Below are positions 3,352 through 59,392 of a DNA stretch of 64,000 bases, one piece after another (within the stretch, counting starts at the first letter, position 1; the number at the start of each line of letters is the position of its first letter). The stretch comes from Candidatus Moraniibacteriota bacterium (lineage in GTDB: Bacteria > Patescibacteriota > Minisyncoccia > Moranbacterales > UBA2206), in assembly GCA_013334765.1 (NCBI GenBank), contig JAAXWW010000005.1, positions 28,350-92,349 of the forward strand, written 5' to 3'. A model generated the notes under the pieces. It did not search any database and had not been told where the DNA came from. It worked only from the letters and a program-made list of their open reading frames with translations. The position numbers and the translations under genes were made by a program.

Positions 3352-3387
3352 CTTGCATTGATTATACCATTTGAGAATCGGATCCTG

Positions 3388-4662: not shown

Positions 4663-4702
4663 TTTTTAGTTTTATTTTTGAAAACCGCCTGATTATAAAA
4701 AC

Positions 4703-5933: not shown

Positions 5934-7013
5934 ATGAAATATCTCCACGCTTTGAACAAGATAAACGGGCTGGGTCCGCAGAAGATGAGATTGCTTCTCG
6001 GCTTCTTCGGAAGCTATGAACGGGCATGGAAAGCGGACGTTTCCGAGCTCTCCCGAGTGAAACTGGGCGGATCGTTAGCAGAAAAGATTGGCATCGAACG
6101 AAAAAAGATCGATCCGGAGAACGAATGGGAAAAGCTCCTGCTGGAAAACATCATCCTGCTATCCCCGGACAGTCCCGATTATCCTGATCTTCTCAAGAAA
6201 ATCCACAATCCCCCGCATGCCATATATATGAGAGGCGCGACGAACCTCAATTCTTTTCACATGATTTCCGTGGTCGGCTCAAGGAACATGACAGCATACG
6301 GGCTGGACGCTGCCGCCAGGCTTTCCAAGGAACTCGCCGAGAGCGGGTTCTCCGTCGTGAGCGGACTGGCTCTCGGAATAGACGCGGCGGCGCACAAAGC
6401 CGCCCTTCAAGCATCCGGCCACACAGTGGCAGTGCTTGGAAGCGGAGTGGACGACATGAACATCTTTCCTCGCGCCAATTTCTCCCTGGCAAAAGAAATA
6501 ATCAGATCGGGCGGAGCAGTCATGAGCGATTATCCACCGGGAACGCCGGCAAGCAACACCACTTTCCCCGCCAGGAACAGGATCATCGCCGGATTATCGC
6601 TCGGCACCTTGGTCATCGAAGCGGCAGAAAAAAGCGGCGCTCTCATCACAGCGAAACATGCTCTCGAATTCAATCGGGAAGTCTTCTCCGTTCCAGGCAG
6701 CATATTTTCCCCCTATTCGATCGGGACCAACAAGCTCATCAAAAGGGGTGCCAAAATCGCCATGGATGTTGGCGACATACTGGAGGAATTCGAATTCAAG
6801 GATATCAGAAAAGACGCCCCCGCCGCGCAGAAAAATCCTGAAAACGAAGAGGAAAAAAGAATCCTTGACGCGCTTAGCATCGTTCCGCTTCACATTGACA
6901 ACCTCGGCAAATTGACTAGACTGGAAACTGCAACCCTTTCCTCGACGCTTTCGATGCTGGAAATAAAAGGCTGGATAAAGAACGTGGGAGGACAGAACTA
7001 TATAATCACGTAA
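5934..7013 (+). CDS. dprA: DNA processing protein A (DprA/Smf)
   Basis: The DprA Rossmann core motifs are VVGSRNMTAYGLDAA, SGLALGIDAAAHKAAL and AVLGSGVD. There is a C-terminal winged-helix tail. Confidence 0.85.
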   Translation: MKYLHALNKINGLGPQKMRLLLGFFGSYERAWKADVSELSRVKLGGSLAEKIGIERKKIDPENEWEKLLLENIILLSPDSPDYPDLLKKIHNPPHAIYMRGATNLNSFHMISVVGSRNMTAYGLDAAARLSKELAESGFSVVSGLALGIDAAAHKAALQASGHTVAVLGSGVDDMNIFPRANFSLAKEIIRSGGAVMSDYPPGTPASNTTFPARNRIIAGLSLGTLVIEAAEKSGALITAKHALEFNREVFSVPGSIFSPYSIGTNKLIKRGAKIAMDVGDILEEFEFKDIRKDAPAAQKNPENEEEKRILDALSIVPLHIDNLGKLTRLETATLSSTLSMLEIKGWIKNVGGQNYIIT

Positions 7014-7028
7014 CGCGCATCACTATTC

Positions 7029-9311
7029 ATGAAACTTATCATCGTCGAGTCACCCACCAAAGCGAAGACTATCTCGAAATTCCTGGGAAAAGAATACACC
7101 GTCAAATCAAGCTACGGGCATATCCGCGACCTGCCCCAGAAGGAAATGGGAATCGACATCGAGAATGACTTCGCGCCCGAATACGTCATCCCGTCCAAGG
7201 CTGCTGACCGGGTGAAGGAACTCAAGAAGCTCGCTGCCAAATCGGAAGATGTCATCCTCGCAACCGATGAAGACCGCGAAGGAGAAGCCATTTCCTGGCA
7301 TTTGGCCGAGGCTCTTGAGCTTGACAAGAAAGACAAGAAGAAAGAAAAAACCGATCCCAAGCGAAGGATAGTTTTCCATGAAATAACCAAGACGGCGATC
7401 GAAAAAGCGCTGGAAAATCCCCGCGAATTGGATTTGGGACTGGTCGACGCGCAACAGGCAAGACGGGTCCTCGACCGTTTGGTCGGCTATGAGCTCTCCC
7501 CATTCCTCTGGAAGAAGATAAGGCGGGGCCTCAGCGCCGGACGCGTACAGTCAGTCGCTCTTCGCCTCATCGCCGAAAGAGAAAAAGAGATCAATGAATT
7601 CAAACCTGTTGGATATTTCGCCATAACCGCGAAATTGGAAAACACCAAGGACAGCAAAAGAGTTCCATTCGAAGCCGAGCTGACGAAAATAAACGAAGAG
7701 AAGATAGAAGAAAGCGTCACGCTCGATCTTTTCGCCGGAGCCTATAAGACCAAGAAGACGAGCATCTCCGAAAAGAAGGATGCGGAAAGGATAAAAGCCG
7801 ATCTTGAAAGCTCGGATTTCTCAGTCAAGAGCATCCAGGCGAAAGACACTTCGCGCTCCCCGCTTCCGCCATTCACCACATCGACCCTGCAACAGTCAGC
7901 CATCAATAGCCTCGGATTTTCAGCCAAGCAGACCATGGCTCTTGCCCAGAAGCTGTATGAGCAAGGCCATATCACATATATGAGGACGGACAGCGTGAAT
8001 CTGTCTTTGGAATCCCTCCTGGCCGCCCAGAAGACTATCGACAGCCTTTTCGGAAAAGATTACGTCCTCCCCAATCCGAGATTCTTCAAGACGAAATCCA
8101 AAGGCGCGCAGGAAGCCCATGAGGCTATCCGCCCTACTTCGGTCGAAAAGACCCCTGAAATAATGAAGAAGGATTTGGAACCGAGAGAATACCGGCTATA
8201 CAAACTGATCTGGGAGAGGATGATCGCTTCGCAGATGCCCGCCGCCATCTTCAATTCGCAGAAAGTTGAAATCATCGCTAAAAGCGAAAAGACATCAGAC
8301 AGCTATACCTTCATGGCAACCGGATCAGTCCTTAAGTTCGACGGATTCCTGAAAGTCCATCAGGGAGGAAAGAAATCGGCCGAAAACGGCAGCGACACCC
8401 TATTACCAAAAATGGACGAGGGTGATATGCTTAACTTGATAGGGATAACGCCCAACGAGAAATCGACCAATCCCCCTCCGCGCTATAACGAAGCGACTCT
8501 CGTCAAAGTGCTCGAAGAAAACGGGATCGGAAGGCCATCGACCTATGCCCCGATCATCTCGACCATCATCGAAAGGAAATACGTCGATAAGAACGAAGAG
8601 AAACGGCTCTATCCGCTGGAAATAGGAAACGTGGTCAATGACGCGCTGGTCCTTCATTTCCCGCAGATCGTCGACATCAAATTCACAGCCACGATCGAGG
8701 AGGAATTCGATGAGATAGCCGAGGGAAAGAAAGCCTGGGTGCCGGTCATCCGCGATTTCTATGGTCCCTTCCACAAGAACCTGACAGAAAAGACCAAGGA
8801 GGTCAAGAAGGAATCGTTCCAGGAAAAACTGGATCGCAGCTGTCCCGAATGCGGAGGAGACCTCATCATGAAGCATGGCAGGTTCGGGAAATTCATCGCC
8901 TGTTCGAACTATCCGAATTGCCGATATACTGAAAAGACCGACTCGGAAAAGAAGATGGATGAGGAATTCGCTGAAGAGATATGCGAGAAATGCGGATCGA
9001 AAATGGTAGTGAAACGCGGAAAATTCGGAACGTTCCTAGGATGTTCCAACTATCCGGAATGCAAGAATATCCGCAAGATAGAGAATAAGACCGGAATCAA
9101 ATGCCCGAAATGCGGCAAGGGAGACATAGTCGAAAGGAAATCGAAAAAAGGAAGGCTCTTCTATGGATGCAACACCTATCCGAAATGCGATTTCGCCCTT
9201 TGGAACAAGCCGACCGGAGAAGAATGCCCGAAATGCAAAAGCCTGCTCATTTTCGCCGCCAAAGGAAAAATGAAATGTTCCAATAAGGAATGCGGATTCG
9301 AGAAGGAATAG
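7029..9311 (+). CDS. topA: DNA topoisomerase I with C-terminal tandem C4 zinc ribbons
   Basis: The Toprim start MKLIIVESPTKAKTISKFLG, EGEAISWHL and active-site region ITYMRTDS are present. Three C-terminal CPECGG / CEKCG / CPKCGKG zinc ribbons follow. Confidence 0.95.
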   Translation: MKLIIVESPTKAKTISKFLGKEYTVKSSYGHIRDLPQKEMGIDIENDFAPEYVIPSKAADRVKELKKLAAKSEDVILATDEDREGEAISWHLAEALELDKKDKKKEKTDPKRRIVFHEITKTAIEKALENPRELDLGLVDAQQARRVLDRLVGYELSPFLWKKIRRGLSAGRVQSVALRLIAEREKEINEFKPVGYFAITAKLENTKDSKRVPFEAELTKINEEKIEESVTLDLFAGAYKTKKTSISEKKDAERIKADLESSDFSVKSIQAKDTSRSPLPPFTTSTLQQSAINSLGFSAKQTMALAQKLYEQGHITYMRTDSVNLSLESLLAAQKTIDSLFGKDYVLPNPRFFKTKSKGAQEAHEAIRPTSVEKTPEIMKKDLEPREYRLYKLIWERMIASQMPAAIFNSQKVEIIAKSEKTSDSYTFMATGSVLKFDGFLKVHQGGKKSAENGSDTLLPKMDEGDMLNLIGITPNEKSTNPPPRYNEATLVKVLEENGIGRPSTYAPIISTIIERKYVDKNEEKRLYPLEIGNVVNDALVLHFPQIVDIKFTATIEEEFDEIAEGKKAWVPVIRDFYGPFHKNLTEKTKEVKKESFQEKLDRSCPECGGDLIMKHGRFGKFIACSNYPNCRYTEKTDSEKKMDEEFAEEICEKCGSKMVVKRGKFGTFLGCSNYPECKNIRKIENKTGIKCPKCGKGDIVERKSKKGRLFYGCNTYPKCDFALWNKPTGEECPKCKSLLIFAAKGKMKCSNKECGFEKE

Positions 9312-27493: not shown

Positions 27494-27664
27494 TCATATT
27501 CTCACTTCCCCCGTTTCTTTGAGCATGATCTTCTCACCCATTCGGGATTCCGAATGTTCCCAGGGATTGATTTCATAAACTTCCACCAATCCAGCCAGGA
27601 TGCGCATGGCCATGCGCAAATCAAGAATGCCTTCGTCAGCTAAACCCATCATGCTTTTTGCCAT
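27494..27664 (-). CDS. Possible small protein (57 aa), uncertain
   Basis: MAKSMMGLADEGILDLRMAMRILAGLVEVYEINPWEH... starts at an ATG with a GGAAG about 9 nt upstream. The rest of the long track ORF (to 27979) is Cys/Trp/Arg-rich and not protein-like. Confidence 0.25.
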   Translation of the reverse strand: MAKSMMGLADEGILDLRMAMRILAGLVEVYEINPWEHSESRMGEKIMLKETGEVRI

Positions 27665-28042
27665 TTTCTCATCTTCCGTGTTTCTCCTTGAAAGATACTG
27701 TTTGACTGAAAAAACAGATCTGCCCATGCGAGGCATGGGCTTATGGAGCACAAACGCAAAGAACAGCTCCAAGTCACAACGCCTAATGGAAAAAATCCCA
27801 ATGAGGCGTAGAGCAAAAGACCATACTACGATGACAGGGCAGGCTTTGTGTTCCAGCCAGGTTATTGTCCCGGCACACACAGCATGTCCATCCGGCATTG
27901 CGGTTCCTCTCATGAATCTCATGACAATACTCCGTTGTTTGGGGTGAAAACATATATACACCAAAGAACCTAGCCACAATATACAAGGATGCTTTCAATA
28001 AGTCAAGAATTGTTTTGAACAACTTCAGTGCTTCTGCGTATG

Positions 28043-30511
28043 TTATATGACGCTCCGCATTCCGGCTCTGGTCATGATTTCGCGCTCAACGAGATCGCGG
28101 TCGCGGCCGTATTTGAAACGGGAAAGCTCCTTGAGCGCATTGGCGATTTCCTGATTGCCCTTGATCGGAGGGAAAGTCGCCATGTTGAAAGGCTTGGTGA
28201 GCGCGTTATCGATGAGGATTCTGGCAAAGCCGTTATAGTTGTCCACATTCACCAGGTCTTTGGCACTGAAGGTCGGAGCGAACTGCTTTTCCAGGAACTC
28301 AGCGTCCTCAGGGCCGACCCTGAAAGCCACCATCGATCCCACATTCCCGAACACCGCCTTGGAAATCTCCTCCTTGAGCTGAGCGATGAACTGATGCGCC
28401 AGCACCAGGCAGAGCCGGTATTTCCTGGCTTCGGAAAGAATCTGCGAGATGGAATTGGTCGTGACATTCTGGAATTCATCGAGATAGAGATAGAAATCCT
28501 TCCTCTCATCCTCCAGGATATCGGCGCGCGAAAGCGCTGCCATAAGGATCTTCCCGACAATCACCATCCCCAAGAGGCGCGCATTGATCTCGCCTATCTT
28601 CCCTTTGGAAAGAGCAACCAGAAGGATCTTCTTGCTGTCCATGATATCTCGGAAATCAAGCGTGCTCTTCTGCTGGGCGATGATCGGGCGCATCATATCG
28701 TTTGATATGAAAGGCGTGAGTTTCGAGGTGATATAAGGAACCATGTTGGCAAGCGAGGCTTCGCCGCCGGCCTTTTCCGCTTCCTTGGTCCAGAAATCGA
28801 CTACGATCGGATTCTTGCATTTCTTGAGTTTCATGGCGCGGAAAGATTCATCGGAAAGCACTTTTGGGATTTCCATAAGCGTCGATCCGGATTCGGGATC
28901 ATCCATGACAAGGAGCATGGCGTTCCGCATATACTGCTCGAACATCGGTCCTCCGGTCGCTTTCAAGTCATAGAGCTGGTCGAATATCCCGATCATCTCA
29001 TTGATAACGAAGGTCTTGAGTTCCGGCCTAGTTGTGTCATATTCAAGCATATTCAGCCCGAAGGGACGCTCCGTATCGGCCGGATTGAAAACAATTACAT
29101 CTTCGGCTCGCTCTTTCGGAATAGCAGTCAGGATATCTTCGATAGCATCCCCGTGCGGGTCAATGAAGCAGAAACCGCGACCGTCCCTGGCATCCTGCTT
29201 CGCCATTTCCTGCAGGAAATTGGATTTTCCGACTCCGGTCTGTCCGATTGCATACAGATGGCGCCTGCGGTCTTTCTCTGAAATCCTGATAGTAGTCTTC
29301 GTTCCGCGATAGTCGTTGTATCCAAGGGTTATTCCCTCAGTTGGAATATTTATCGGCGGAGGGGAAGCGTTGGATTTCAGCCATTTGATTTTCGGCGTTT
29401 CCGTGGTCGAAATGGGAATATGGTATATGCTGGCAATTTCCTCATTGCTGAGCGTTATGGATTCATCCGATTTGAAATTGCGGAAAATGAAATCATAAGC
29501 GATTTCCTTCTTATCCATCCTTTTGACTTGGAAGTAGTTTATGTCGGAATTCTGGTATTGCGAAAAAGCGTTTTCGAGATGGCCTAGGATTTCCTGGGCA
29601 CGTTCCTGGGTCTTGGCCGAAGCGACCAGGCGGATATTGACACGGAATCCGCTTTTGACGCTCTTCCTCTCGATGCTCTTCACCAGTTCCTGTTCTTCCG
29701 GCGTAAGCTGGACGACCGTCTTCTCAAAAGATTGCTGATCTTTACCTTCGTGCGCGATAACCCCGGAGATGGCGCTGCCCACTTCGCGACCGACTTTCAG
29801 CATGAAGTGTCCCGTGACATCCTTGAGCCGTTTGCCTTGCTGCATTTCGTGCGCGATGCGCTTCCCTTCGCTTCTCCAGCCTGTTCCGGCGGGAGCAAGA
29901 ACCAGCTGGATAGCTGCCCCTTCTTCGACAGTGTCCAGCTTGCTTATGGCGTTAGTAATAGCGTTCAATGGGTCTATTTCCAGATCCTCATAGGTTTTTA
30001 TCGGCAAGGCATGGCTTTCCTTGAGGATTATGATCGACGCCTCAGTGAAGCTTCCAGGAGAAAAAACGCTATAGTCGCCGCATTTCTCCAAGACTGCGTT
30101 CGGGAAATAGCTGTGGATCTGCTTTTCAACGCTCTCGCGGAATTTCTTGGGAATGGAAATAAAGAATATTATCTCTTCGGAATCGGACGAATTGGCTATT
30201 TCGAAAGAAATGCTCGGAGAACCATATATCAGCTTCTTAAAGAATCCCTTCTTGTCCTTCATCGAAGAAAGCGCCGTAAGAAGCTGTTCCATGGCGCCTA
30301 TTTCGTCTTTCCAAGTCTGCTTCTCCCTACTGCTGTCTTCGGGCCTTATTTCCATCTTGGAGACACGGATAATATCCAGATCGAGATTCATCGACTGGTT
30401 TATTTGAGAGCGGAAAGAAACGAATCCATTGATGATAGTCAGGGCGCCCAGAATAAGCGTTGCCAGTCCGGAAACGACAAGAATCGGAATCAGGATAATA
30501 TTGATGTCCAT
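28043..30511 (-). CDS. Fused N-terminal membrane domain plus FtsK/HerA-VirB4-like (DUF87-type) ATPase (822 aa)
   Basis: An N-terminal TM is followed by a domain homologous to the 3388-4662 product. The ATPase has Walker A AIGQTGVGKS, FIDPHGDA and Walker B FYLYLDEFQNV. Confidence 0.8.
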   Translation of the reverse strand: MDINIILIPILVVSGLATLILGALTIINGFVSFRSQINQSMNLDLDIIRVSKMEIRPEDSSREKQTWKDEIGAMEQLLTALSSMKDKKGFFKKLIYGSPSISFEIANSSDSEEIIFFISIPKKFRESVEKQIHSYFPNAVLEKCGDYSVFSPGSFTEASIIILKESHALPIKTYEDLEIDPLNAITNAISKLDTVEEGAAIQLVLAPAGTGWRSEGKRIAHEMQQGKRLKDVTGHFMLKVGREVGSAISGVIAHEGKDQQSFEKTVVQLTPEEQELVKSIERKSVKSGFRVNIRLVASAKTQERAQEILGHLENAFSQYQNSDINYFQVKRMDKKEIAYDFIFRNFKSDESITLSNEEIASIYHIPISTTETPKIKWLKSNASPPPINIPTEGITLGYNDYRGTKTTIRISEKDRRRHLYAIGQTGVGKSNFLQEMAKQDARDGRGFCFIDPHGDAIEDILTAIPKERAEDVIVFNPADTERPFGLNMLEYDTTRPELKTFVINEMIGIFDQLYDLKATGGPMFEQYMRNAMLLVMDDPESGSTLMEIPKVLSDESFRAMKLKKCKNPIVVDFWTKEAEKAGGEASLANMVPYITSKLTPFISNDMMRPIIAQQKSTLDFRDIMDSKKILLVALSKGKIGEINARLLGMVIVGKILMAALSRADILEDERKDFYLYLDEFQNVTTNSISQILSEARKYRLCLVLAHQFIAQLKEEISKAVFGNVGSMVAFRVGPEDAEFLEKQFAPTFSAKDLVNVDNYNGFARILIDNALTKPFNMATFPPIKGNQEIANALKELSRFKYGRDRDLVEREIMTRAGMRSVI

Positions 30512-30543
30512 TTATGTTATTGTTTTTCTTTTTTATTTTTCTC

Positions 30544-31014
30544 CTATATCTCGGTTATGAGCCCTTTCCTGACTAGCGCGTCATGCAGATCCGCAGAAAG
30601 AAGCCTGTCATGAAGCTCGTCGAGAAGATAGTTGTCTTCCATATGGCGCGCCACCTTCACGGCATGGACGACGCCTTTCGATTCGGCGATGCTAACCAGC
30701 TTTTCCAGCCTGCTCTCGTAGTCTTTCATTTCACTCATCTCTTTAGCATCAGAAGACACATTGCTGGTAGATGAGGCTTGCGGAGCGTCGGAAGGAACCT
30801 TGGAAAGGATCTTGGAATATGCCGCTTCCTTTTCCGCAGCGCCTTCCTTTCTTTCCGCGTTCGTTTCGGGAAGAGACGGCGTTTCAGCATCCAAAACAGC
30901 CTCGCTGGGAAAATCGATATTTTCTTTCTTGGCGGCTGCTCCTGGCAGGAATTTGTCTTTCAAATCCAAATCGCTTTCATCGATCGGTTCCAGATTAGAT
31001 TTTATCGGTTCCAT
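30544..31014 (-). CDS. Hypothetical acidic protein (156 aa)
   Basis: It is in the operon directly upstream of the fused ATPase. It is E/D/S-rich with a helical C-terminus. Confidence 0.5.
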   Translation of the reverse strand: MEPIKSNLEPIDESDLDLKDKFLPGAAAKKENIDFPSEAVLDAETPSLPETNAERKEGAAEKEAAYSKILSKVPSDAPQASSTSNVSSDAKEMSEMKDYESRLEKLVSIAESKGVVHAVKVARHMEDNYLLDELHDRLLSADLHDALVRKGLITEI

Positions 31015-31036
31015 ATTTTTCAGTTAATTATTGAGT

Positions 31037-31348
31037 TTATGCTTTTTTCATTTCCGTCTTGAATTCGTCGATGATGCTTCTCACCATTCCGTCATAATCG
31101 GCGATCTTTTCCCTGAGAAATATCTCTATTTTATCGGGACCCTCTTCGGCATCGATCATTTTCATGTATTCCTCTTTGTCCCCCTCCGAAAGTTTCGCAA
31201 GAGACTCCGAGAATATCCTGCGAAGGACGACTTCGGTCATCTTTATGAGAAGCTCGTCCTGCTTGTCCTTGGAAAGCTCGGAAAGACCGAGCTCTTCTAT
31301 GAGAGCGTTGCGCGCTTCGTCCTGATTAGGTTGTCCATTATTTCCCAT
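31037..31348 (-). CDS. Hypothetical small helical acidic protein (103 aa)
   Basis: In-operon ORF with 22-nt spacing from its neighbours and charged helical composition. Confidence 0.5.
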   Translation of the reverse strand: MGNNGQPNQDEARNALIEELGLSELSKDKQDELLIKMTEVVLRRIFSESLAKLSEGDKEEYMKMIDAEEGPDKIEIFLREKIADYDGMVRSIIDEFKTEMKKA

Positions 31349-31369
31349 GTCGTTTTAAGATTAGTATAT

Positions 31370-34009
31370 TTATTGTAATTGTATTCCTTTGCTTTTCATT
31401 ATCATGCCTATCACTCTGGTTGTCCAACTACTCAGCCTCTCCCCGTCCTTAGGTTCGAATACTTTCCCTCCTGGAGCCGCTAACAATGACCTGTATACCC
31501 CGATAACCTTCTCCCCACTGCCGTTCGACACTGGGTCATCGAAAAGCTCCTTGGCTGTTATGTTCTGCATCTGCTGGAACGAACCTATGCGGGTATTGTC
31601 TCCCAACATGCTGATACGGTATCTGGAGAACATCTTCTTGATAAGCTGGTTGTGATACTCTTTAAGCCTCAGCATTACCGCTTTGGCTCTTATGTTTTCT
31701 TCCATGCTCATTTTGGCATCTGTCAGCCTATCAAGCTCGGCAGAATCTCCATGCAAAGCATGCTCTGAAACGATTTTCTGATCTATTTCGCCTAATTGGA
31801 TTCTCATCGCATTGATATCGGTTTTTTCTATGCCAGGATTATGAGATAATATATTGTTTATTTTCCCTGATACTTCATGGTATCTATAAATGTCACGACC
31901 GACAGATCCGGATAACCCGAACTGACCGTCAATACGGTTCACGTCTTCCACATCCATTCCCATGATTTTTCCATGAACTTCGCCTGTTTCAATATAATGG
32001 TTTCCAACCCCGGCATTATTAGGAGCACCGTCATGAATGCCAGCTGCAGCCTTTTCATCAGGAGTGGCAAAAGAAAAATAAGGCTTTCCATCCGCTCCCT
32101 TTTCGATCCAGCCCAAATGCTTGTCACCGGTTATTCCCATTATCCCTTTGCCATCCGGAGTAAGATGTATTTTTGTTCCTTCATGCACTAGACTGAAAGC
32201 TCCTTTCGGTAAATCATGCTTTTGGGCAAATTCGACAGCCATTCTGTGCGCCCTTCTTCCAGCTTCTTCTTTGCTAACACCTTGGGATGTAAGATGCTTA
32301 ATCAGGTTTCTTTCAATGCTTCCTCCTTTCCCGATCGTTATTTCAGCCCCTTTTGGAATTTCAGCAGTCGAAGCAATCCCGGGACCGGATTCCGGAACTT
32401 TCGGTATGCCGGAATGAATCGGCGAATCGCTCTGCAAATCCGGCGCCTGATACGAACCGTCCGGAAGACGCGCTCCGTGTCCATGATTCCGTATATCGTA
32501 TTCTTTCAGCTTGCTATATATTTCCTTAGCTCCTGGTCCTGGTTTCACTCCTGGCGTTTCGGTGCCATGAACGCCTCCCTGGATTTCAGGCTTCATAGCA
32601 CCATCATGCGAAGGATGCAACTTCGGCATTCCGGCCTTGACTGCATGATCCGCATTCAATCCTAAACCGTTCACGACTTGAAATATTGCTGAGGCTCCGA
32701 TAGCTCCGCCAACAATCCACCCGATCGCCTTCCTGCTTCCTGATTTCCGCACTTCGCGCTTGAGGCTTTCGTCATATGTCTTGATTTCATTCCTCAATGA
32801 TCCAGCAAGGACATTGAATTTTCCTTCCAGATCATTGACATCCATTTTAGCCAGCTCTTCAAGCATTTTATTCTTCTCTTTCTCGGCTTTTTTCGCGTCT
32901 GACAAGCGCCTCATATTCTTCTGGGTCTCCGCTATTCCGACTCCAGCCGCCGCGCCGCCGATTATTTTCTGACCGAATCTGGCCACTCCCGCAACAGTAG
33001 CGACTGAAGCAACCCCGGCAAATCCTGCGCCCAATCCGATTGCGAAAATACCAGCAGAAGCAGCGACCTTCTGTTCCCGAGGGAGCTTCTTGTACCACTC
33101 CACAACTTGCACTCCCCTTTCCCAAACCTTATCTTTCCAGCTCTTGTCCTTGCCGTCTTCATCGGCCTTGAGGTCGGATTTAGCCCTAGTACGGGCATCG
33201 AAGAGATTGTTATTCTCTTCCAATTTGAAATACATGATCAGCTTGCCGATTTCATCCTCCGCCTCTGTGCCCGTAGCAATCTTTCCAGCTTGGCTTTTCG
33301 ATTCGATGCCGTCATACTTCGATCTTAATGATTCCACTTGGAAGCTTATAAGCGCATTAAGCGCGGCTTGATATTGGTTGTATTCATCAGTCGTGCCGGC
33401 TAAGGTTTCGGATGTGGTTTTGACATAGCGCAGCACTCTGTTCATCATCGACAGCTTTCTGCTCATTTCCAAATCTTTCGCAGCATATGCCGCTCTGGTC
33501 GATTCGACATTCTGCCTGAGCATCTCTAGTTCTTCTGCTCTTTTTTCCGCTTCGCTTTTTTCACCTACCGCTTCACTGTCAACCGGCTTATCTTTATTAT
33601 TGTCCTCCATATTCTTTCCGGTGAACTCTCCATCGTCAGATATCCCTGAAAATTTCCTGAGCCATTCCTCCTTGCTCATTGATTCTCTCGGTTTTTCATC
33701 ACTATTATCAGCCACCGGTCCGCGCGAAAAATCTTCCAGCCACTGCCTTTTCATTTCCTCTTGATTATCTGGATATGAATCTTCCGGTTTTTCTTCTTGA
33801 GGCTCCTGCTTATTATCCTCGGGCAATTCATTTTTTTTCAATTCCAGACTTCCCGGTTTTGCCGGTTCGCCATCGATGGCAGAGTTCTCTGTCGCATTCC
33901 TGCTCTTCATCTCATTCAATCTGAGATTCCTTTTTCGAGCCATTTCATTCTCTTTTGCGAGTATTGATTTTGTTGCTGCCTCTGGATCAAACATTATTTT
34001 TATTTTCAA
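31370..34009 (-). CDS. Large hypothetical membrane protein (879 aa) with two Gly-rich TM segments
   Basis: The N-terminal third is acidic and coiled-coil. The TM-like segments are AASAGIFAIGLGAGFAGVASVATVAGVA and AIGWIVGGAIGASAIFQVVNGLGL. It has a Gly/His-rich C-terminal domain and I recognise no family. Confidence 0.6.
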   Translation of the reverse strand: MKIKIMFDPEAATKSILAKENEMARKRNLRLNEMKSRNATENSAIDGEPAKPGSLELKKNELPEDNKQEPQEEKPEDSYPDNQEEMKRQWLEDFSRGPVADNSDEKPRESMSKEEWLRKFSGISDDGEFTGKNMEDNNKDKPVDSEAVGEKSEAEKRAEELEMLRQNVESTRAAYAAKDLEMSRKLSMMNRVLRYVKTTSETLAGTTDEYNQYQAALNALISFQVESLRSKYDGIESKSQAGKIATGTEAEDEIGKLIMYFKLEENNNLFDARTRAKSDLKADEDGKDKSWKDKVWERGVQVVEWYKKLPREQKVAASAGIFAIGLGAGFAGVASVATVAGVARFGQKIIGGAAAGVGIAETQKNMRRLSDAKKAEKEKNKMLEELAKMDVNDLEGKFNVLAGSLRNEIKTYDESLKREVRKSGSRKAIGWIVGGAIGASAIFQVVNGLGLNADHAVKAGMPKLHPSHDGAMKPEIQGGVHGTETPGVKPGPGAKEIYSKLKEYDIRNHGHGARLPDGSYQAPDLQSDSPIHSGIPKVPESGPGIASTAEIPKGAEITIGKGGSIERNLIKHLTSQGVSKEEAGRRAHRMAVEFAQKHDLPKGAFSLVHEGTKIHLTPDGKGIMGITGDKHLGWIEKGADGKPYFSFATPDEKAAAGIHDGAPNNAGVGNHYIETGEVHGKIMGMDVEDVNRIDGQFGLSGSVGRDIYRYHEVSGKINNILSHNPGIEKTDINAMRIQLGEIDQKIVSEHALHGDSAELDRLTDAKMSMEENIRAKAVMLRLKEYHNQLIKKMFSRYRISMLGDNTRIGSFQQMQNITAKELFDDPVSNGSGEKVIGVYRSLLAAPGGKVFEPKDGERLSSWTTRVIGMIMKSKGIQLQ

Positions 34010-34035
34010 CTATTTGGATATTCAAATTGGCATTT

Positions 34036-36018
34036 TCAAAAAAACAAGAAATCGAGGTCATTAGACTTGATTAGCCTTTTAATTGCCAACTCGACTCTTT
34101 CCTCGCTATTGAAATGCCCTTCTTTGACCATCTCTGCTTTTAATCTTCGAAAATATGCCCTGATGTTGATATCCGCCAAATCACCAGCATCGTCAGGATC
34201 ATAGCCGAACCCGGACCAGTCCATACCTCTTATATGTCCGATCATCTCTTTCACGCCTTCTTCATATATATCGCATATTTCGATTTCTTTTTGCGTCAGC
34301 ATTTCCTTGAACAAATCAGCATTCCACTCTTGCAATTGCTTGAATGAAATTATCTTCGGAATTGATTTTATTTCGTCTCCGGATCGATTCTCCACTACAA
34401 CCATTCCTGATTCTGTATTCACTGCAGCAATCCGCCATCCTTCTTCTCCAGCGACCTTCACATCGATTGTTCCTCCGTTCTCAATATACGTCCTGATTTC
34501 TTTCAAATATTCCTCTTCGCTTGATCCTTCAAATGAACCATTTTTAAACACGCTATCAATCAATGCAGAGGCATCGCTTTCTATGGTTTCCTTTCCGCGT
34601 GTTCCGTCATTGCCCAGGTTTTTTTGATCTGGTTCGGCGGCAGCGACTTCATCTTCATGGGTTCTTTCATTTTTAACTGATGGTTGATTTTTTTCTGGAA
34701 TCGCGACAGGTTCAGGCATGGATTTCTCAGCTCGTTCTTTTGCTTCTTTTTCCAGGGCCGCCTTGAGTTCAGGATTGATTTCTCCTCCCGACAAAGTCTT
34801 CATGAATTCTTCCATTGTCACGTCAAGCGGCTCGCTGTCATTCGTGTCTCTTAGCAGATAGTTACCGCGAACATTGATCATTCCGCGAGGAACGATCCCG
34901 TCGTCTATTTTTCTTTTATGATATGAGTAGAATTTGAATTGATCTTCCCCCGGGCTCCAAATCAGATATCCGTCATAGCCTCTGTATCTAGCCGCTAATT
35001 GTCCGACATTTTCCGCGCGATTAACCTTAGGATACCCATTCTCCTTTTTTGTATCGATAAGCACTTTATGATCGCCGCCTACATCCAGAACAAATCCTTT
35101 TTTCTCTAATTCTTCAATTTCTGCCTTGGCTTCTTTCTTAGCCTTCTCCAGCTCTTCGCTGCATTCTGAAAGGGTTTTTCTTCTAGCCTTCCCATTACCG
35201 ATTGAACAATTGTTATTGTTCAAATAGTACTCATCAAGAGGATCGGCCGGATTTCGGCGAGGCCGTCTCCGGAACAGCGCCAAAATTTCGCTGGTATCTA
35301 TTTTATTGCGCAATCCGTACAGATTCTTGTGATAGTTATCAAAAACTTTTTTCAGCTCCCTATCAGAATAATTTTCATTATCACACTTGGTCACAAATTC
35401 CACAAACCGATCCAAGTATTCCTCTTTTTTCAAAATGCCTTCCCTGACTAACTCTTCGTAGAAATACTTTGCGGCTGAGGTGTCCTTGTCTGAATCCTTC
35501 CCGTGATGGTCATCTATGTATATTTTCCCAGCTTCTCTGGTAGCCGTTCCATCTACACCGCCGGAATCAAAGATGGCTCCGCTTTTGACTGTATCCCCCG
35601 GGAAAACATAACCCAGTTTTATTTCCTGGTCTTTCAAATCTATTCCGGCTATTCTGAGTATTTCCAGACAGCTTCTACCATCAAGATCCGTAAATTTTAG
35701 CAATGACTTTTCACCTGTTTCAGGATCAATTCTTACGATTCCATGAACGGATATTTCTTTCCATAAATGCGTGAATAATTCCTTGAGTCTTTCTTGCTTT
35801 TCCTCTTCCGTGCCACCAAGCTCTTCCTCGGAATCTAGTTCCACTCCGAAATCGTTCGCTAATTTATTAAGCAAATAAAAAGTATGTTGGACCAAGGGAC
35901 GATTAGCAGCCTCTTCTTTTGCAAACTCATATCCTTTCAATCCAACTTCTTGCTTCGGCTCTTTTTTTTGCGCTTCGCCTGCGCTTACGCTGCCAGAGCT
36001 ACTTACTGTCTCTTTCAT
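34036..36018 (-). CDS. Hypothetical 660-aa protein with DHH-phosphoesterase-like motifs; first gene of the operon
   Basis: KFTDLDGRSCLEIL resembles DHH motif I (DxDG). GKIYIDDHHGKD resembles motif III (DHH). VLDVGGDHKV is a possible GGGH-like motif. The C-terminal half is unassigned. Confidence 0.55.
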   Translation of the reverse strand: MKETVSSSGSVSAGEAQKKEPKQEVGLKGYEFAKEEAANRPLVQHTFYLLNKLANDFGVELDSEEELGGTEEEKQERLKELFTHLWKEISVHGIVRIDPETGEKSLLKFTDLDGRSCLEILRIAGIDLKDQEIKLGYVFPGDTVKSGAIFDSGGVDGTATREAGKIYIDDHHGKDSDKDTSAAKYFYEELVREGILKKEEYLDRFVEFVTKCDNENYSDRELKKVFDNYHKNLYGLRNKIDTSEILALFRRRPRRNPADPLDEYYLNNNNCSIGNGKARRKTLSECSEELEKAKKEAKAEIEELEKKGFVLDVGGDHKVLIDTKKENGYPKVNRAENVGQLAARYRGYDGYLIWSPGEDQFKFYSYHKRKIDDGIVPRGMINVRGNYLLRDTNDSEPLDVTMEEFMKTLSGGEINPELKAALEKEAKERAEKSMPEPVAIPEKNQPSVKNERTHEDEVAAAEPDQKNLGNDGTRGKETIESDASALIDSVFKNGSFEGSSEEEYLKEIRTYIENGGTIDVKVAGEEGWRIAAVNTESGMVVVENRSGDEIKSIPKIISFKQLQEWNADLFKEMLTQKEIEICDIYEEGVKEMIGHIRGMDWSGFGYDPDDAGDLADINIRAYFRRLKAEMVKEGHFNSEERVELAIKRLIKSNDLDFLFF

Positions 36019-36194: not shown

Positions 36195-37772
36195 ATGGAA
36201 GAGGCACAGGAAGAAAAAAGAATGGGCTACAAGGTTTGGATTATTTTGATAGCCATACTGGCAATCGGTTTCTTCTTGAGGATATACAACATCGATCATG
36301 CGCCTCCGGGAGTATATCCCGATGAAGCGGTCAACGGCATGGATGCCGTTCAGGCCGAAGAATCCGGAAATTATCAGTGGTTCTATACCGCCAATAACGG
36401 ACGCGAGGGGCTTTTCATGAATATGATCGCAATGAGCTTCAAATTCTTCGGCATAAGCCCGCTGTCGCTCAGGATCCCATCCATAGTCTTCGGAACCCTC
36501 ACCATACTCGGGACCTATCTTGTCGCCAAAGAACTTTTCCAGAAGGAACGGGTCGGCCTTCTGGCCGGATACCTGGTCGCCGTGTCATACTGGTCGATCA
36601 ATTTCTCACGCATATCCTTCCGGGCTATCCTGGTTCCTTTCATCCTGTCTTTTTCTTTCTATTTCCTGTTCAGAGCAGTCCGTACGAAGAAATGGTATGA
36701 CTTCGCGGCAGGCGGCTTGATTTTCGGCATCGGGTTGCATACGTATATCGCCTTCCGCATCGCGCCGCTCATCCTGGTCGTCGCGCTCATGAGCTTCATG
36801 CTTTCCAGAAAGGATTTCCTGAAAGAATATTGGAAAGGGATATTGATATTCATAACCGGAACGATCATAACGGTCGCTCCGATACTATATACCTTCTATA
36901 TCCACCCTGAATATCTCAGTTCTAGAACCGCTTCGGTTTCCATCCTTTCACCGGATGTCAACCAAGGGCATCTCTTTGCGACGTTCTTCCGGAGTTTCGG
37001 GTTGAGCCTTGCCAAATACAACTTCTGGGGCGACCAGAACTGGAGGCATAACTATCCTCCCTATCCCGTTTTGGATATCGCTTCAGGAATCGCGTTCCTT
37101 TTCGGAATCGCCTATTCTTTCATCAGGCTTTTCCATCTGCTTTGGAATAGGATAGTCGATGGATACAGGAATTCCAGGCTGGACAAGCATGTGTTTCTCA
37201 TTTCCTGGTTCTTCATCATGCTGGTTCCGGAGTTCATGACAGCCGAGGGGCTTCCGCACGCCTTGCGTTCGATCGGAACGCTGCCGGCAGTCTTCATCCT
37301 CGCCGCCATGACCTTCGACTATTTCTTCAGATATGCCGAACGGCACACTCCCTTTTTCAGGAAGCTCAATGCCGCAATGGTCATCATCGTTCTCCTTAGC
37401 ATCGGGATATTCAACAGCATAAAATATCACCTCTTTTGGGCGCACAAGACCGAGGCTGCTAGCTCCTTCGAGCGTCCATTGATGGATATCTCGGAATATC
37501 TCCATACCCTTCCCCTGCAGCAAGAGAAGATCGTTTTCGCCGAGTCCATGCAAAGGATTCCTATCCAGGTTTTCGATTGGAAAATGCCTAACACCGAATA
37601 TCTCTATTCCGGGCAGATCAATGAATTTTCGCCGACGTCCGATAATTTCATAGTCATCCTTACCGACAAGAATGATGCGATCATCAGCCATATCCAAGAC
37701 AAATTCCCGGAACTCGCGCTCAAGGAAAGAAAGGACGCCTACGGCCTTAGCTTCTATACCCTAAGCAAATAA
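36195..37772 (+). CDS. GT-C fold glycosyltransferase, ArnT/PMT (GT39/GT83)-like
   Basis: It has 10 or more TM helices and a first-loop motif APPGVYPDEAVNGM of the DE type. Confidence 0.8.
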   Translation: MEEAQEEKRMGYKVWIILIAILAIGFFLRIYNIDHAPPGVYPDEAVNGMDAVQAEESGNYQWFYTANNGREGLFMNMIAMSFKFFGISPLSLRIPSIVFGTLTILGTYLVAKELFQKERVGLLAGYLVAVSYWSINFSRISFRAILVPFILSFSFYFLFRAVRTKKWYDFAAGGLIFGIGLHTYIAFRIAPLILVVALMSFMLSRKDFLKEYWKGILIFITGTIITVAPILYTFYIHPEYLSSRTASVSILSPDVNQGHLFATFFRSFGLSLAKYNFWGDQNWRHNYPPYPVLDIASGIAFLFGIAYSFIRLFHLLWNRIVDGYRNSRLDKHVFLISWFFIMLVPEFMTAEGLPHALRSIGTLPAVFILAAMTFDYFFRYAERHTPFFRKLNAAMVIIVLLSIGIFNSIKYHLFWAHKTEAASSFERPLMDISEYLHTLPLQQEKIVFAESMQRIPIQVFDWKMPNTEYLYSGQINEFSPTSDNFIVILTDKNDAIISHIQDKFPELALKERKDAYGLSFYTLSK

Positions 37773-37792
37773 AAAAGTAACATAAAAAAAAT

Positions 37793-39640
37793 ATGCGTCG
37801 CTTTTTGGAAAACAATCACAGAGCAATCATCACGCTGGTGATGCTGTTCATGTTCGCCGTTTCTACGCTCAATGCCTGGAGGGACAGCGCCATCTTCGAC
37901 GAAACCGCTCACATTCCAGCCGGGTATTCATATCTCACCATGCATGACATCCGCCTCAACCCGGAGCATCCGCCGCTTCTCAAAGACCTGGCAGCCCTTC
38001 CCCTTCTTTTCCTCCATCTCAAATTCGACACGACCCAGAAGTTCTGGACGACTGATGTCAACGGGCAGTGGGAAGCCGGGAAAAGCCTTTTCTGGCAATC
38101 AGGCAACAACCCTGATCTTCTCATTTTCCTGGCACGCATGCCCATTGTCATCCTGTCCCTCGTTTTCGGATTATTCCTGTTCAAATGGGTCAAGGAACTA
38201 GCTGGAACACTCGCCGGACTTTTCGCATTGATTCTCTATGCCTTCGATCCCAATATCCTAGGGCATAATCATTTCGTGACGACAGATCTCGGAATCGCCG
38301 GATTCATGATGATCTCTTTCTATTATTTCCTGCGTTTCATCAAAAAACCGACTTGGAAAAACGTCGCCATCGGCGGGCTGTTCCTGGGAATAGTCCAGCT
38401 CACCAAATTCTCTTCCATAATGCTTTTCCCGATCTATGGGCTGATCCTCATCATCTATCCCATGTTCAGGATCGCAAGGCAAGACAATGAGAACACGTTC
38501 GGGTTCAGGATGAAAACCATCGGGGAATATCTCATAAAAGGAATCGCCGCCTTCGCCATATCCCTGGTAGTCGTTTGGGGATTGTATGTCTTCAATACCT
38601 ATGACATGCCGAAAGAAAAACTTGCCGAAACCATCAACTATTATTTCAGCCCGACCGATACCAACCCGACCAACCTATATACCAACCGGGCACTTATCGG
38701 ACTCAACCAATCATCGATCACCCGTCCGCTCTCCGGATATGTTTTGGGCATCGCCATGGTCTTCAAGCGCGTCGAGGGAGGAAACGGGGCATATTTCATG
38801 GGCCAGGTTTCGAATAGCGCTTTTAGAAACTATTTCCCGACCGTTTTTGCCATAAAGGAACCGATTCAGAACCTGTTCCTGTTCGCATCCGCCATAGCGA
38901 TCGCTCTCATAGGCATCTTCGCGGCTATCGTCCGCCATCTCAAGAAACCTTTCGGAAGCATGTTCCCTGCCGGAGAATTCGGCGCTTTTGTCAGGCACAA
39001 CATCACATCCATTTCGCTTTTGGGATTTGTCGCCCTTTATGCCTATATAAGCATCACGGGAAATCTCAATATCGGATTCCGCCATCTCTTCCCGATCCTG
39101 CCTTTCGCCTATATCCTCACTGCCAAAACTATTTTCGATTTCATTAAGAAACGGGAAACCCACAATGAGAAAGTCATTTTCCGCTCGATCGTCCTTCTGC
39201 TTTCTTTGACTCTCGTAGTCCAGACCGCCCTGGCCTATCCCTACTACATGTCATATTTCAACCAGATAGCTGGCGGGCCGAAGAACGGCTATCACTATGT
39301 CACCGATTCCAATGCCGACTGGGGACAGGACCTGAAGCGCCTCAGATCCTTCCTGGCGGTTCATCCTGAGATAATGAAGATCCGCGTCGACTATTTCGGC
39401 GGGGCGGATATCAAATACTATATCGGGGACAGATATGCGATGTGGTGGGATTCCAAGCGTCCCATCGAATCAGGCTGGTATGCCGTTTCCACCAATTTCC
39501 TGCAGGGCAGCCTCTACGACAAAACCAAACCGGACAATCAATCATATCGCTGGATCCAGAAGTTCACCCCGAAATACCAAGTAGGCACTTCGATTCTGGT
39601 TTATTACATAAGCCCGGATGACTTGAAACAGTTGAAATAG
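37793..39640 (+). CDS. Second GT-C fold glycosyltransferase, ArnT/PMT-like, with a C-terminal soluble domain
   Basis: FDETAHIPAGYSY...NPEHPPLLK resembles the ArnT-family DE...EKPPL loop. It is polytopic and tandem with the previous gene. Confidence 0.75.
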   Translation: MRRFLENNHRAIITLVMLFMFAVSTLNAWRDSAIFDETAHIPAGYSYLTMHDIRLNPEHPPLLKDLAALPLLFLHLKFDTTQKFWTTDVNGQWEAGKSLFWQSGNNPDLLIFLARMPIVILSLVFGLFLFKWVKELAGTLAGLFALILYAFDPNILGHNHFVTTDLGIAGFMMISFYYFLRFIKKPTWKNVAIGGLFLGIVQLTKFSSIMLFPIYGLILIIYPMFRIARQDNENTFGFRMKTIGEYLIKGIAAFAISLVVVWGLYVFNTYDMPKEKLAETINYYFSPTDTNPTNLYTNRALIGLNQSSITRPLSGYVLGIAMVFKRVEGGNGAYFMGQVSNSAFRNYFPTVFAIKEPIQNLFLFASAIAIALIGIFAAIVRHLKKPFGSMFPAGEFGAFVRHNITSISLLGFVALYAYISITGNLNIGFRHLFPILPFAYILTAKTIFDFIKKRETHNEKVIFRSIVLLLSLTLVVQTALAYPYYMSYFNQIAGGPKNGYHYVTDSNADWGQDLKRLRSFLAVHPEIMKIRVDYFGGADIKYYIGDRYAMWWDSKRPIESGWYAVSTNFLQGSLYDKTKPDNQSYRWIQKFTPKYQVGTSILVYYISPDDLKQLK

Positions 39641-39696: not shown

Positions 39697-40542
39697 TCAT
39701 TCCAGCCGTTTTCTGTTTCTGCCTGATGCCAAGAAATTATTTCCGGTCACTACGCTTTTTCCGGTTTTCTGTTCAAGCGCGGTTCTCGCGTCCTTAGCGA
39801 TCCTGCCGCCTTTTTTAGCTGGAACCTTATTCTCTTCCAAACCTTTCGCCTTCATTGTTTCGGCGATCTGCCGGGTCGAAAGTTCAGCCAGGGCTGTGAA
39901 GACCAATTCGGCGTCCGACATATGATCGCGCAGATTATGAGTCTTGAGTTTTTTCAGATTCTTATGCTCTTTGATGGTCAGGTCGCTCCATTCTTGATGG
40001 ATTATATTCGTCAGAATCGCGAATTCATCTTTCTCTTGAACATCGTTGTTTTTCCAATAGTCCGTCAATTTGTTCCTGACCTCCTGCCCCATCATCCTTT
40101 GCTGGATCCATTTCTCGCTCCGGCCCATCTTCAGCCAATATTCCCTCGAGCGATTCATCGCCTTTTCCGGATCTGACATTTCCTGAATTCGCTCATAGCC
40201 GACTTTCGCCAGCCACAGTTTGATCGGTTCGGCTTTTTTGGATGGAACCGATTGGATCAAGCGCAGAATCGTTTCGGTATTCGCAACATCAGTCTTATAG
40301 AATTTACCATCGGCAGATTGCAATTTCAGTTTGTCACATTTTGTGACAGACTCATTTCCTTCTTTTTTTAAGCGATTCTTAAGAGTTGTCCAATAACTTT
40401 GCGCTTTCTTGAAATCTTTCTGCTCAATCAACGCTGCCACGATATCGATCACCGAAAAATACCAAGTTTCGGTTTCTTCATCGTAGTGCCGGCGAATCTT
40501 GAAATTCTCAAAAATCGCCAATGAGTCCTTTTCCTTCGCCAT
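39697..40542 (-). CDS. DinD-like (DNA-damage-inducible protein D family) protein with an N-terminal Bro-N-like domain, paralogue 1
   Basis: The N-terminus AIFENFKIRRHYDEETETWYFSVIDIVAAL is Bro-N-like. The central KAEPIKLWLAKVGYERIQE and C-terminal KNLKKLKTHNLRDHMSDAELVFTALAELSTRQI parallel E. coli DinD (KGLKKNQKILDHMGSTELAANLF). Confidence 0.75.
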   Translation of the reverse strand: MAKEKDSLAIFENFKIRRHYDEETETWYFSVIDIVAALIEQKDFKKAQSYWTTLKNRLKKEGNESVTKCDKLKLQSADGKFYKTDVANTETILRLIQSVPSKKAEPIKLWLAKVGYERIQEMSDPEKAMNRSREYWLKMGRSEKWIQQRMMGQEVRNKLTDYWKNNDVQEKDEFAILTNIIHQEWSDLTIKEHKNLKKLKTHNLRDHMSDAELVFTALAELSTRQIAETMKAKGLEENKVPAKKGGRIAKDARTALEQKTGKSVVTGNNFLASGRNRKRLE

Positions 40543-55878: not shown

Positions 55879-55998
55879 GTTCCCAGCATTGTCCTACTCT
55901 TCCCCCGCCTGAGCGGGGATACCATCGGTGCTGATAAGCTTAACGGCCGAGTTCGGTATGGGATCGGGTGTTTCCTTATCGCTAGAAACACTGGGAAC
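55879..55998 (-). rRNA. rrf: 5S ribosomal RNA
   Basis: The reverse complement reads TTCCCAGTG...CCCGATCCCATACCGAACTCGGCCGTTAAGC...CACCGATGGTATCCCCG...GGGGAAGAGTAGGACAATGCTGGGAA with helix I pairing. The ends are approximate. Confidence 0.85.
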
Positions 55999-56239
55999 GA
56001 TACATTCAAAAAGTGCTTAGAATGCCTTGATCACAGGAGAGAAAAACATGAATGATGCAATGGCAATCAGGATAACAAAAAACACGGCTGATATGAACTT
56101 CAAATTATCAGTATACCTTTTCATAAGTGACTTTTTTAGTAACTGTTAACTGCTAACCGAATCATACCATATATCATGAAACACCGCACATGAGACTTGC
56201 GCCTCATATAAAGTGCTCCACGTTATATGGAAAATAAGA

Positions 56240-59392
<3,153 letters not shown>

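Follow-up and report, generated by a model that had tools for sequence, protein, structure and literature searches.

The protein analysed here, 660 amino acids (aa) long, is encoded in a 64,000-nucleotide (nt) stretch of a Candidatus Moraniibacteriota genome (contig JAAXWW010000005.1, positions 28,350 to 92,349). We refer to this whole stretch as the window, and all coordinates below are window positions unless another locus is named. The protein very probably belongs to a family that had no annotation before and is seen here only in the ultra-small Patescibacteria (the Candidate Phyla Radiation, CPR), with a core of ~390 aa that represents a strongly diverged DHH/DHHA1-type phosphoesterase of two domains; its nearest sequence relatives are in the compact branch of PggH and 6mtz. 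As all of the metal-binding and catalytic residues of DHH enzymes are kept, we consider it likely to be an active Mn2+/Mg2+-dependent phosphoesterase. We also lean towards the view that it works with a conserved CPR module in which a membrane-anchored VirD4-like ATPase is accompanied by a large membrane protein and two small ones, an acidic protein and a DUF5663 protein.

The open reading frame (ORF) lies on the minus strand at 34036..36018, with the ATG at 36018 and the stop at 34036, and is gene 1 of an operon. All features of the protein and its operon given below are on the same strand; the plus strand at 34036-36018 has a translation riddled with stops. The protein is 100% identical to HGB08_03975, listed by NCBI as a "hypothetical protein" of a Candidatus Moranbacteria metagenome-assembled genome.

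The DHH-like core and its motifs

Conservation was evaluated in an alignment of 139 homologues, each representing a cluster at 50% identity. In the N-terminal half of the protein the near-invariant polar residues are exactly H92, D111, D113, D151, D170-H171-H172 and D213, the positions that bind metal and catalyse hydrolysis in DHH enzymes and on which the prediction of activity rests. Motif I, KFTDLDGRSCLEIL (aa 108-121; 35656..35697), contains D111 (0.97) and D113 (1.00), which align to D13/D15 of PggH (numbering from PMC8861645). Upstream of it, ISVHG (aa 89-93; 35740..35754) ends strand beta1 of the predicted structure, and its H92 (0.91), which is followed by G93 (0.87), is a possible equivalent of the upstream His of motif I. 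Motif II, GAIFDSGG (aa 147-154; 35557..35580), has D151 (0.98) at a modelled strand end and aligns to D80 in the "VCDT" of NrnA. Motif III, GKIYIDDHHGKD (aa 164-175; 35494..35529), includes D170 (0.94), H171 (0.96) and H172 (0.93), which align to the DHH of both NrnA and PggH. Motif IV, VEFVTKCDN (aa 206-214; 35377..35403), has D213 (0.98) and N214 (0.95) where a helix ends; 6mtz aligns to this region, and its register relative to NrnA is 2 residues off in hhalign. The set of motifs I-IV is complete and in canonical DHH order, with spacings of 38, 19 and 41 aa that resemble those of compact DHH enzymes. Three motif strings had been picked out in the initial annotation, and all are present (aa 108-121, 164-175 and 310-319). 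Motifs I and III are genuine, given that D111/D113 and D170-H172 are conserved at 93-100% in the 139 homologues; the third string, discussed below, is not conserved. Motifs II and IV had not been listed there and are present as well.

The strongest single result for the catalytic domain is a comparison of sequence profiles. Aligned by hhalign to a PggH-type N-domain alignment, which was collected using a PggH fragment as query, the N-domain of the family gave a probability of 96.4% and P 1.3e-9 over 75 columns that span motifs I-III, with DxD and DHH in register. The comparison with the NrnA-type alignment gave P 3.7e-4 and aligned motifs II and III and the next helix; the NrnA-seeded homologue set consisted only of near-identical Staphylococcus and Bacillus NrnA and added little diversity. 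These two alignments support a DHH-like catalytic domain at aa 86-216 (35371..35763). When a profile of 50 family sequences was searched against 177,635 PDB sequences, the best two matches were 6mtz (E 0.26) and PggH (7d62, E 0.83). Neither is significant alone; both are DHH/DHHA1 proteins, and an NrnA profile recovers 6mtz at E 4.5e-5. In both alignments DLDG falls on DFDG and DHH on DHH, with the helix after DHH and motif IV in register.

The family core (aa 40-432; 34723..35901) comprises N-terminal helices, the DHH-like domain, a helical linker and a DHHA1-like domain. AlphaFold2 modelled aa 38-432 from the 50-sequence alignment with a predicted local distance difference test score (pLDDT) of 91 and a predicted template modelling score of 0.91. 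In this model, motifs II and III are at strand ends and motif IV is at a helix end, matching DHH domains. Foldseek comparison of the core model to the PDB returned 11 matches at E<=1e-3 and ~45 more, essentially all from the DHH/DHHA1 superfamily, with a best E of 3.6e-5, probabilities of 0.99-1.0 for the best matches and alignments of 356-444 columns. 6mtz was the top match, and the others include RecJ, PAP phosphatase, NrnA, TM1595, GdpP, DhhP, family II pyrophosphatase, the AlaRS C-terminal domain and Cdc45-containing replisomes. In combination the lines of support are complementary: the N-domain is identified by sequence profile and the C-domain by structure, and the full-length colinear match joins both.

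The DHHA1-like domain (aa 270-432; 34723..35211) is supported by full-length Foldseek alignments to NrnA, TM1595, GdpP, RecJ and the DHHA1-type C-terminal domain of AlaRS. GGGH binds nucleic acid or nucleotide in DHH/DHHA1 enzymes, and VLDVGGDHKV (aa 310-319, with GGDH at 314-317; 35062..35091) had been put forward as a possible degenerate form of it. Column conservation does not bear this out: in the 139-sequence alignment, 63-65% of sequences have a gap at G314 and G315, and only 6% have His at position 317. The string corresponds to a beta-strand and turn at the start of the DHHA1-like domain and is not a conserved motif. Instead, hhalign places the GGGH of NrnA at KTLSGGEI (aa 407-414; 34777..34800), a poorly conserved segment without His; aa 410-413 are SGGE, and the family consensus in the same alignment is T/S-G/D-G/K-K/D, again without His. 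What the C-domain does conserve is G308, G347, W354, F361 and a family-specific hairpin, PRGMINVRGNYLLR (aa 377-390; 34849..34890), with the consensus QG-x3-R-x2-MW-x-K and conservation of 0.98 for G379, 0.94 for R384 and 0.81 for M/Y387. This hairpin (consensus at aa 378-390) may stand in for GGGH and is a candidate substrate-binding element. With GGGH missing and possibly replaced in this way, the substrate need not match that of NrnA, RecJ or GdpP.

Several results speak against the assignment to DHH/DHHA1. As a check, the initial annotation had named a hidden Markov model (HMM) search against PF01368 (DHH) and PF02272 (DHHA1), and taken to the letter the outcome goes against its hypothesis: the 660-aa protein has no Pfam match to either model at E<=1, and the same holds for five relatives at E<=10 and for 50 at E<=0.001. 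Scanning the protein and its relatives with NCBIfam and PADLOC likewise gave no DHH/DHHA1 match. A phmmer search of PDB sequences with the 660-aa protein found none, and a 5-sequence profile gave nothing useful. The TM-scores of the core model are low (0.24-0.48, with a root mean square deviation of 8-16 A), which we tentatively attribute to the known inter-domain hinge and to insertions. The N-domain model alone (aa 80-232, pLDDT 94.9) matched no DHH structure in Foldseek (best E 0.81); this is real negative evidence, outweighed by the hhalign match to the PggH-type domain. The C-domain alone has no sequence-profile signal to the NrnA-type profile (hhalign P 0.37), and for that reason it leans on structural evidence. 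Finally, the GGGH substrate-binding motif is absent at the equivalent position. The DHH claim of the initial annotation is partly supported: the N-domain aligns to the PggH-type DHH domain and the core model finds essentially only DHH/DHHA1 proteins, but the HMM match is lacking.

Profile sensitivity is relevant to these null results. The NrnA profile is weak even among known members, reaching RecJ at E 0.047 and PggH at E 0.22; therefore, distant DHH branches are hardly joined by HMMs in general. Pfam DHH seems to under-detect the compact PggH branch too. Among 120 listed PggH-type N-terminal fragments, PF01368 is precomputed for just one, and several are named DHH-superfamily or exopolyphosphatase by their source.

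An exhaustive phmmer search of 1.84 billion cluster representatives yielded 342 proteins with E<=1e-3, of which 88 reach E<=1e-30, so that at 50% identity the family comprises at least 342 clusters. The shared part is a core of ~360-390 aa (query aa ~40-432) within proteins of 319-2153 aa; beyond it, members have low-complexity extensions and shuffled accessory modules. One of these modules, a helical segment of ~85 aa at aa 570-653 of the 660-aa protein (34060..34311), was found in 22 of the 152 family members, in most cases at the very C-terminus and in some N-terminal to the core. Every named family member in the sources checked is a "hypothetical protein", and no Pfam match is on record for any. 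In the literature searched we found no paper that connects DHH with CPR/Patescibacteria and none that mentions DUF5663 or 6MTZ, and a scan of metagenomes for related loci returned one locus only. Two contigs of metagenome-assembled genomes that carry this CPR-specific family (L002, CAZAFB010000004.1, and L003, CAZXKY010000004.1; the L numbers denote related loci) are titled "uncultured Bdellovibrionales". The PMT_2 glycosyltransferase genes of L003 are 55-60% identical to those of the Moranbacteria window and arranged alike, and the Bdellovibrionales labels are probably wrong.

Operon neighbours and genomic context

The operon consists of six co-directional ORFs (660, 879, 103, 156, 822 and 161 aa) that run from 36018 down to 27494 with gaps of 21-63 nt. 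Gene 2 (879 aa; 31370..34009) encodes a fast-evolving protein with a central pair of hydrophobic segments and no Pfam match. Gene 3 (103 aa; 31037..31348) encodes a DUF5663 protein (Pfam PF18908, 25.7 bits against a cut-off of 23.7), and gene 4 (156 aa; 30544..31014) a protein whose N-terminal half is rich in Asp and Glu, also with no Pfam match. Gene 6 (161 aa; 27494..27979) is co-directional and has no homologue in the related loci.

Gene 5 (822 aa; 28043..30511) encodes a membrane-anchored VirD4/TraD-like coupling-protein ATPase, as indicated by Pfam, NCBIfam and PDB matches. The Pfam matches are TrwB_AAD_bind (38.2 bits, cut-off 20.5), TraG-D_C (28.6, cut-off 22) and T4SS-DNA_transf (20.7, cut-off 20.1); NCBIfam matches of the TraD and CD1115 types are below the equivalog cut-offs. 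The best PDB match is DotL, the N-terminus is hydrophobic, and a DUF8128 N-domain is on record for the orthologue in locus L015. No Pfam or NCBIfam match of the VirB4 type was found for this protein when VirB4/CagE/TrbE models were considered. The operon had been described as containing a VirB4-like ATPase; with Pfam matches above cut-offs and DotL as best structure, the neighbour is of the VirD4/TraD coupling-protein kind. A 2025 survey counted 5,713 VirD4-like genes in 2,918 Patescibacteria genomes, approximately two orphan VirD4-like coupling ATPases per genome, most of them far from virB4, and left their function open (PMC12102498).

The order DHH-like gene, large membrane protein, DUF5663, small acidic protein and coupling ATPase is found in the window, in L007 (Saccharibacteria), in L015 and in L016. 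L015 is fully syntenic, including XerC, GT4, holB, FtsQ and two PMT_2 genes, and shows an 8-nt gene overlap. L009 has a shortened form of the operon with an 11-nt overlap and a 4-nt gap. The proteins of this conserved operon diverge to very different degrees. Between the window (28043-36018) and L015:9043-17547, identity is 77% for the ATPase, 61% for PMT_2, 57% for an 860-aa neighbour, 55% for DUF5663 and 54% for the acidic protein, but only 30% and 26%, respectively, for the DHH-like protein and gene 2. Such values within one operon reflect either a very uneven evolutionary rate or paralogue replacement.

DUF5663 is the most consistent neighbour: it adjoins the family gene in 9 of the ~13 loci that are informative, and in L005 and L010 it lies directly upstream. 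DUF5663 genes at L005:7968-8297, L010:1507-1809, L002:972-1277 and L017:18311-18607 directly flank very large uncharacterised proteins. The large partners are the DHH-like family, the gene-2 family and a 1253-aa protein in L002, an arrangement that looks like a pairing of small partner and large protein.

A second coupling-protein locus is present in the window at 1423-5764 (minus strand), adjoining dprA (5934-7013) and topA (7029-9311). It encodes a Sigma70_r4 and HARE-HTH protein (4703-5764), a 424-aa ORF (3388-4662) homologous to the N-terminal domain of coupling ATPases, and a VirD4-like ATPase of 642 aa that carries a treble-clef zinc finger (1423-3351). The equivalents of the 424-aa and 642-aa ORFs are fused in L009 as one 1117-aa protein, with the same HARE-HTH gene before it; therefore, the window copy is naturally split or frameshifted.

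Upstream of the 660-aa gene there are 176 bp and then two PMT_2 glycosyltransferase genes, divergently transcribed. This PMT_2 (ArnT/PMT-type) pair adjoins the DHH-like gene in five loci that belong to different CPR lineages, namely the window (36195-39640, plus strand), L003, L007, L014 and L015, and is divergent to it in all four loci in which orientation was examined. A gene for a 281-aa Bro-N protein (39697-40542, minus strand) separates ftsQ from the PMT_2 genes in this core part of the chromosome; the Bro-N domain is usually associated with phages or viruses. In L015 a 281-aa gene lies directly upstream of the DHH-like gene and overlaps it.

The window is otherwise ordinary chromosome, with 23S and 5S rRNA genes, two tRNAs, ParB, HisRS, MreB, FtsW, a MurA-type gene, FtsQ, holB, dprA and topA, and its GC content is flat, without a shift at the locus. 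We considered whether the locus is a mobile element or conjugative island, and ruled this out on the absence of a GC shift and the synteny across CPR classes; no relaxase was found among the ORFs scanned. An anti-phage defence system was likewise ruled out, as the PADLOC match reflects only the generic P-loop similarity of the ATPase and the context is core chromosome. In the rRNA region at 55881-59382 (minus strand), the 23S gene spans 3146 nt compared with a model of 2925 positions, implying insertions of ~220 nt, and is followed by the 5S gene. The window, its 4.6 kb upstream included, gave no 16S rRNA match, and the rRNA genes therefore appear to be unlinked.

Relation to known systems and possible roles

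The best sequence-profile relatives of the family are two compact DHH/DHHA1 phosphodiesterases, PggH (Vibrio cholerae VCA0593, PDB 7d62) and Helicobacter pylori 6mtz. The family has the DxD ... DHH ... D catalytic set in common with both, and the distance from motif I to motif II is similar, 38 aa in the 660-aa protein and 40 in PggH. Pairwise identity is ~17%. PggH is a stand-alone cytoplasmic dimer of ~310 residues (the 7d62 chain has 324 aa), whereas family members range from 319 to 2153 aa and, unlike PggH, have N-terminal helices, beta-hairpin insertions, low-complexity linkers, extra modules and another genomic context. The GGGH of PggH is functional, as its H282A mutant is inactive (PMC8861645), and the family is without it.

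With NrnA, TM1595 and the GdpP catalytic domain (PF01368 plus PF02272), the family shows a fold-level match and probably shares the two-domain architecture. It differs from them in having no Pfam match, no GGGH and no sequence-profile similarity in the C-domain, and the inter-strand helices of the NrnA-type DHH domain are hairpins in the family model. GdpP additionally has N-terminal transmembrane helices, PAS and a degenerate GGDEF; the 660-aa protein has none of these Pfam domains and no hydrophobic N-terminus. RecJ, a 5′-3′ exonuclease acting on single-stranded DNA (ssDNA), has the DHH/DHHA1 core in common with the family (Foldseek E 6e-5 to 4e-4), but the 660-aa protein has no RecJ match in NCBIfam or Pfam, no detected OB-fold and no DNA-binding elements of the GGGH type. 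Because curated family models fail and GGGH is absent, we file the proteins as a new divergent family of the DHH superfamily and not as members of NrnA, RecJ, GdpP or PggH.

VirD4/DotL coupling-protein systems likewise combine a membrane-anchored ATPase with small adaptors and large cargo proteins. Here the large proteins evolve fast and have several domains, among them an enzyme domain and a C-terminal module that recurs in the family. Classical coupling proteins do not have the DUF8128 N-domain of this ATPase, and no VirB4/VirB6 channel genes are nearby among the ORFs scanned. We regard the likeness to adaptor-cargo systems of this type as a lead and make no claim of membership; the adaptor and cargo roles are putative.

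As a whole, the explanation that we slightly favour is that of a divergent DHH enzyme that is a partner of the module and its client or cargo. The last part, a recruited client acting on nucleic-acid-derived substrates outside the cytoplasm, is tentative. The 660-aa protein would then be a fast-evolving client or cargo of the coupling-ATPase module, recruited to the ATPase by DUF5663, by the acidic protein or by its own C-terminal helical module. It would be presented at or beyond the envelope and there could hydrolyse phosphodiester substrates, whether nucleic acid, oligonucleotides or nucleotide signals. Hydrolysis of phosphodiesters at the surface would suit an epibiont unable to make nucleotides. 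In favour of a client are the fast evolution, the size polymorphism, the shuffled C-terminal module and the adaptor-like small neighbours; in addition, DotL, the best solved relative of the ATPase, is an effector-recruiting coupling protein.

Other observations count against a partnership with the module or against export. The ATPase is within 10 kb of the family gene in only 5 of ~13 informative loci, and in L002, L003, L004 and L010 the DHH-like gene is followed by a different family of 745-773 aa, with no ATPase within ~9 kb. No signal peptide or transmembrane segment was predicted in the 660-aa protein, whose N-terminus is not hydrophobic, and no VirB4 or VirB6 channel gene was found among the window ORFs scanned. 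The orphan coupling protein was reported to be non-essential in S. epibionticum (PMC12102498). The 745-773-aa family itself (L002:12284-14521, L004:3802-8431, L003:12183-12907) is unrelated, occurs as a tandem duplicate in L004, shares a part with the 1253-aa protein of L002 and has no Pfam match apart from a weak one to a WipA-like phosphatase (E 0.005).

The initial annotation had coupled a DHH nuclease or phosphodiesterase to DNA processing or nucleotide signalling at the ATPase. Of this, the position of the gene at the head of an operon with an ATPase stands and the VirB4-like identity of the ATPase does not, and the coupling itself is putative, with the ATPase accompanying the gene in only 5 of ~13 informative loci. 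In its DNA-processing form, a cytoplasmic DHH enzyme at a VirD4-like DNA translocase would trim or degrade imported or exported ssDNA or oligonucleotides, like RecJ or NurA-HerA, and feed nucleotide salvage or recombination. Coupling proteins and HerA/FtsK relatives do move DNA, the operon order and the tight spacing or overlap with the ATPase recur in 5 loci, RecJ is matched by the core model (E 6e-5), a protein without a signal peptide would fit, and the second coupling-protein locus adjoins dprA and topA. Yet a core enzyme is not expected at 30% identity while its ATPase keeps 77%, the nucleic-acid-binding GGGH is absent, no Pfam domain of any kind, OB-fold included, was detected, and most family loci are without the ATPase. 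We consider this role unlikely. It is less probable still that the protein is a stand-alone housekeeping nanoRNase, pAp phosphatase or dinucleotide phosphodiesterase, a CPR analogue of NrnA or PggH whose proximity to the ATPase is synteny without functional coupling. Fast evolution, lengths of 319-2153 aa, low-complexity extensions, the loss of GGGH, the gene overlaps in L009 and L015 and the repeated adjacency of DUF5663 in different arrangements all argue against it. On the other side, the catalytic motifs are intact, the neighbours are housekeeping or envelope genes (FtsQ, holB, PMT_2, MreB, FtsW), the PMT_2 pair is syntenic in 5 loci too, so local synteny is generally conserved, and the closest sequence relative, PggH, is a dinucleotide-specific phosphodiesterase (PMC8861645).

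Two further explanations dispense with catalysis or with DHH homology altogether. The near-invariance of the metal-binding and catalytic Asp/His set in 139 diverged homologues is hard to explain without catalysis, and makes it very improbable that the protein is a non-catalytic DHH-fold scaffold, similar to eukaryotic Cdc45 and purely a structural subunit of a membrane complex, even with Cdc45-containing replisomes among the weak Foldseek matches, GGGH absent and large non-enzymatic extensions. That the motifs arose by chance on an unrelated alpha/beta fold would agree with the missing Pfam and NCBIfam matches, the N-domain that alone finds no DHH structure and the low TM-scores. This explanation is already largely refuted and we give it almost no weight, considering the hhalign P of 1.3e-9 to the PggH-type DHH domain with motifs in register, the confident full-core Foldseek matches that are essentially all DHH/DHHA1, the two DHH proteins at the top of the PDB profile search and the four motifs conserved in canonical order.

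Implications for Patescibacteria

A large part of bacterial diversity belongs to the CPR, whose members depend on other cells to live on and are unable to synthesise nucleotides; most of their lineage-specific proteins are without annotation. For at least 342 clusters (50% identity) of "hypothetical" proteins, this analysis provides a testable enzymatic identity, that of a DHH-type metal phosphoesterase whose substrate-binding domain is altered. Although enzymes of this class are well known, the family is large, lineage-specific and missed by standard annotation; it is invisible to Pfam, NCBIfam and PADLOC, and a dedicated HMM would improve the annotation of CPR genomes. The family is also placed in a conserved operon with an orphan VirD4-like ATPase, which gives these ATPases concrete, testable partners in DUF5663, the acidic protein, the large membrane protein and the DHH-like enzyme. 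Saccharibacteria are genetically tractable, and the operon partners are open to experiment there.

We raise one broader idea as speculation, which we consider rather improbable. Orphan VirD4-like ATPases, DUF5663 and small acidic adaptors could form a dedicated pathway for polymorphic, large, fast-evolving clients, of which the DHH-type family would be a main enzymatic one. Once at the cell surface or inside the host bacterium, the clients would degrade nucleic acids or nucleotide signals of the host so that these can be scavenged. If true, this would be a new route of host exploitation, separate from the VirB4 type IV system known as essential in Saccharibacteria.

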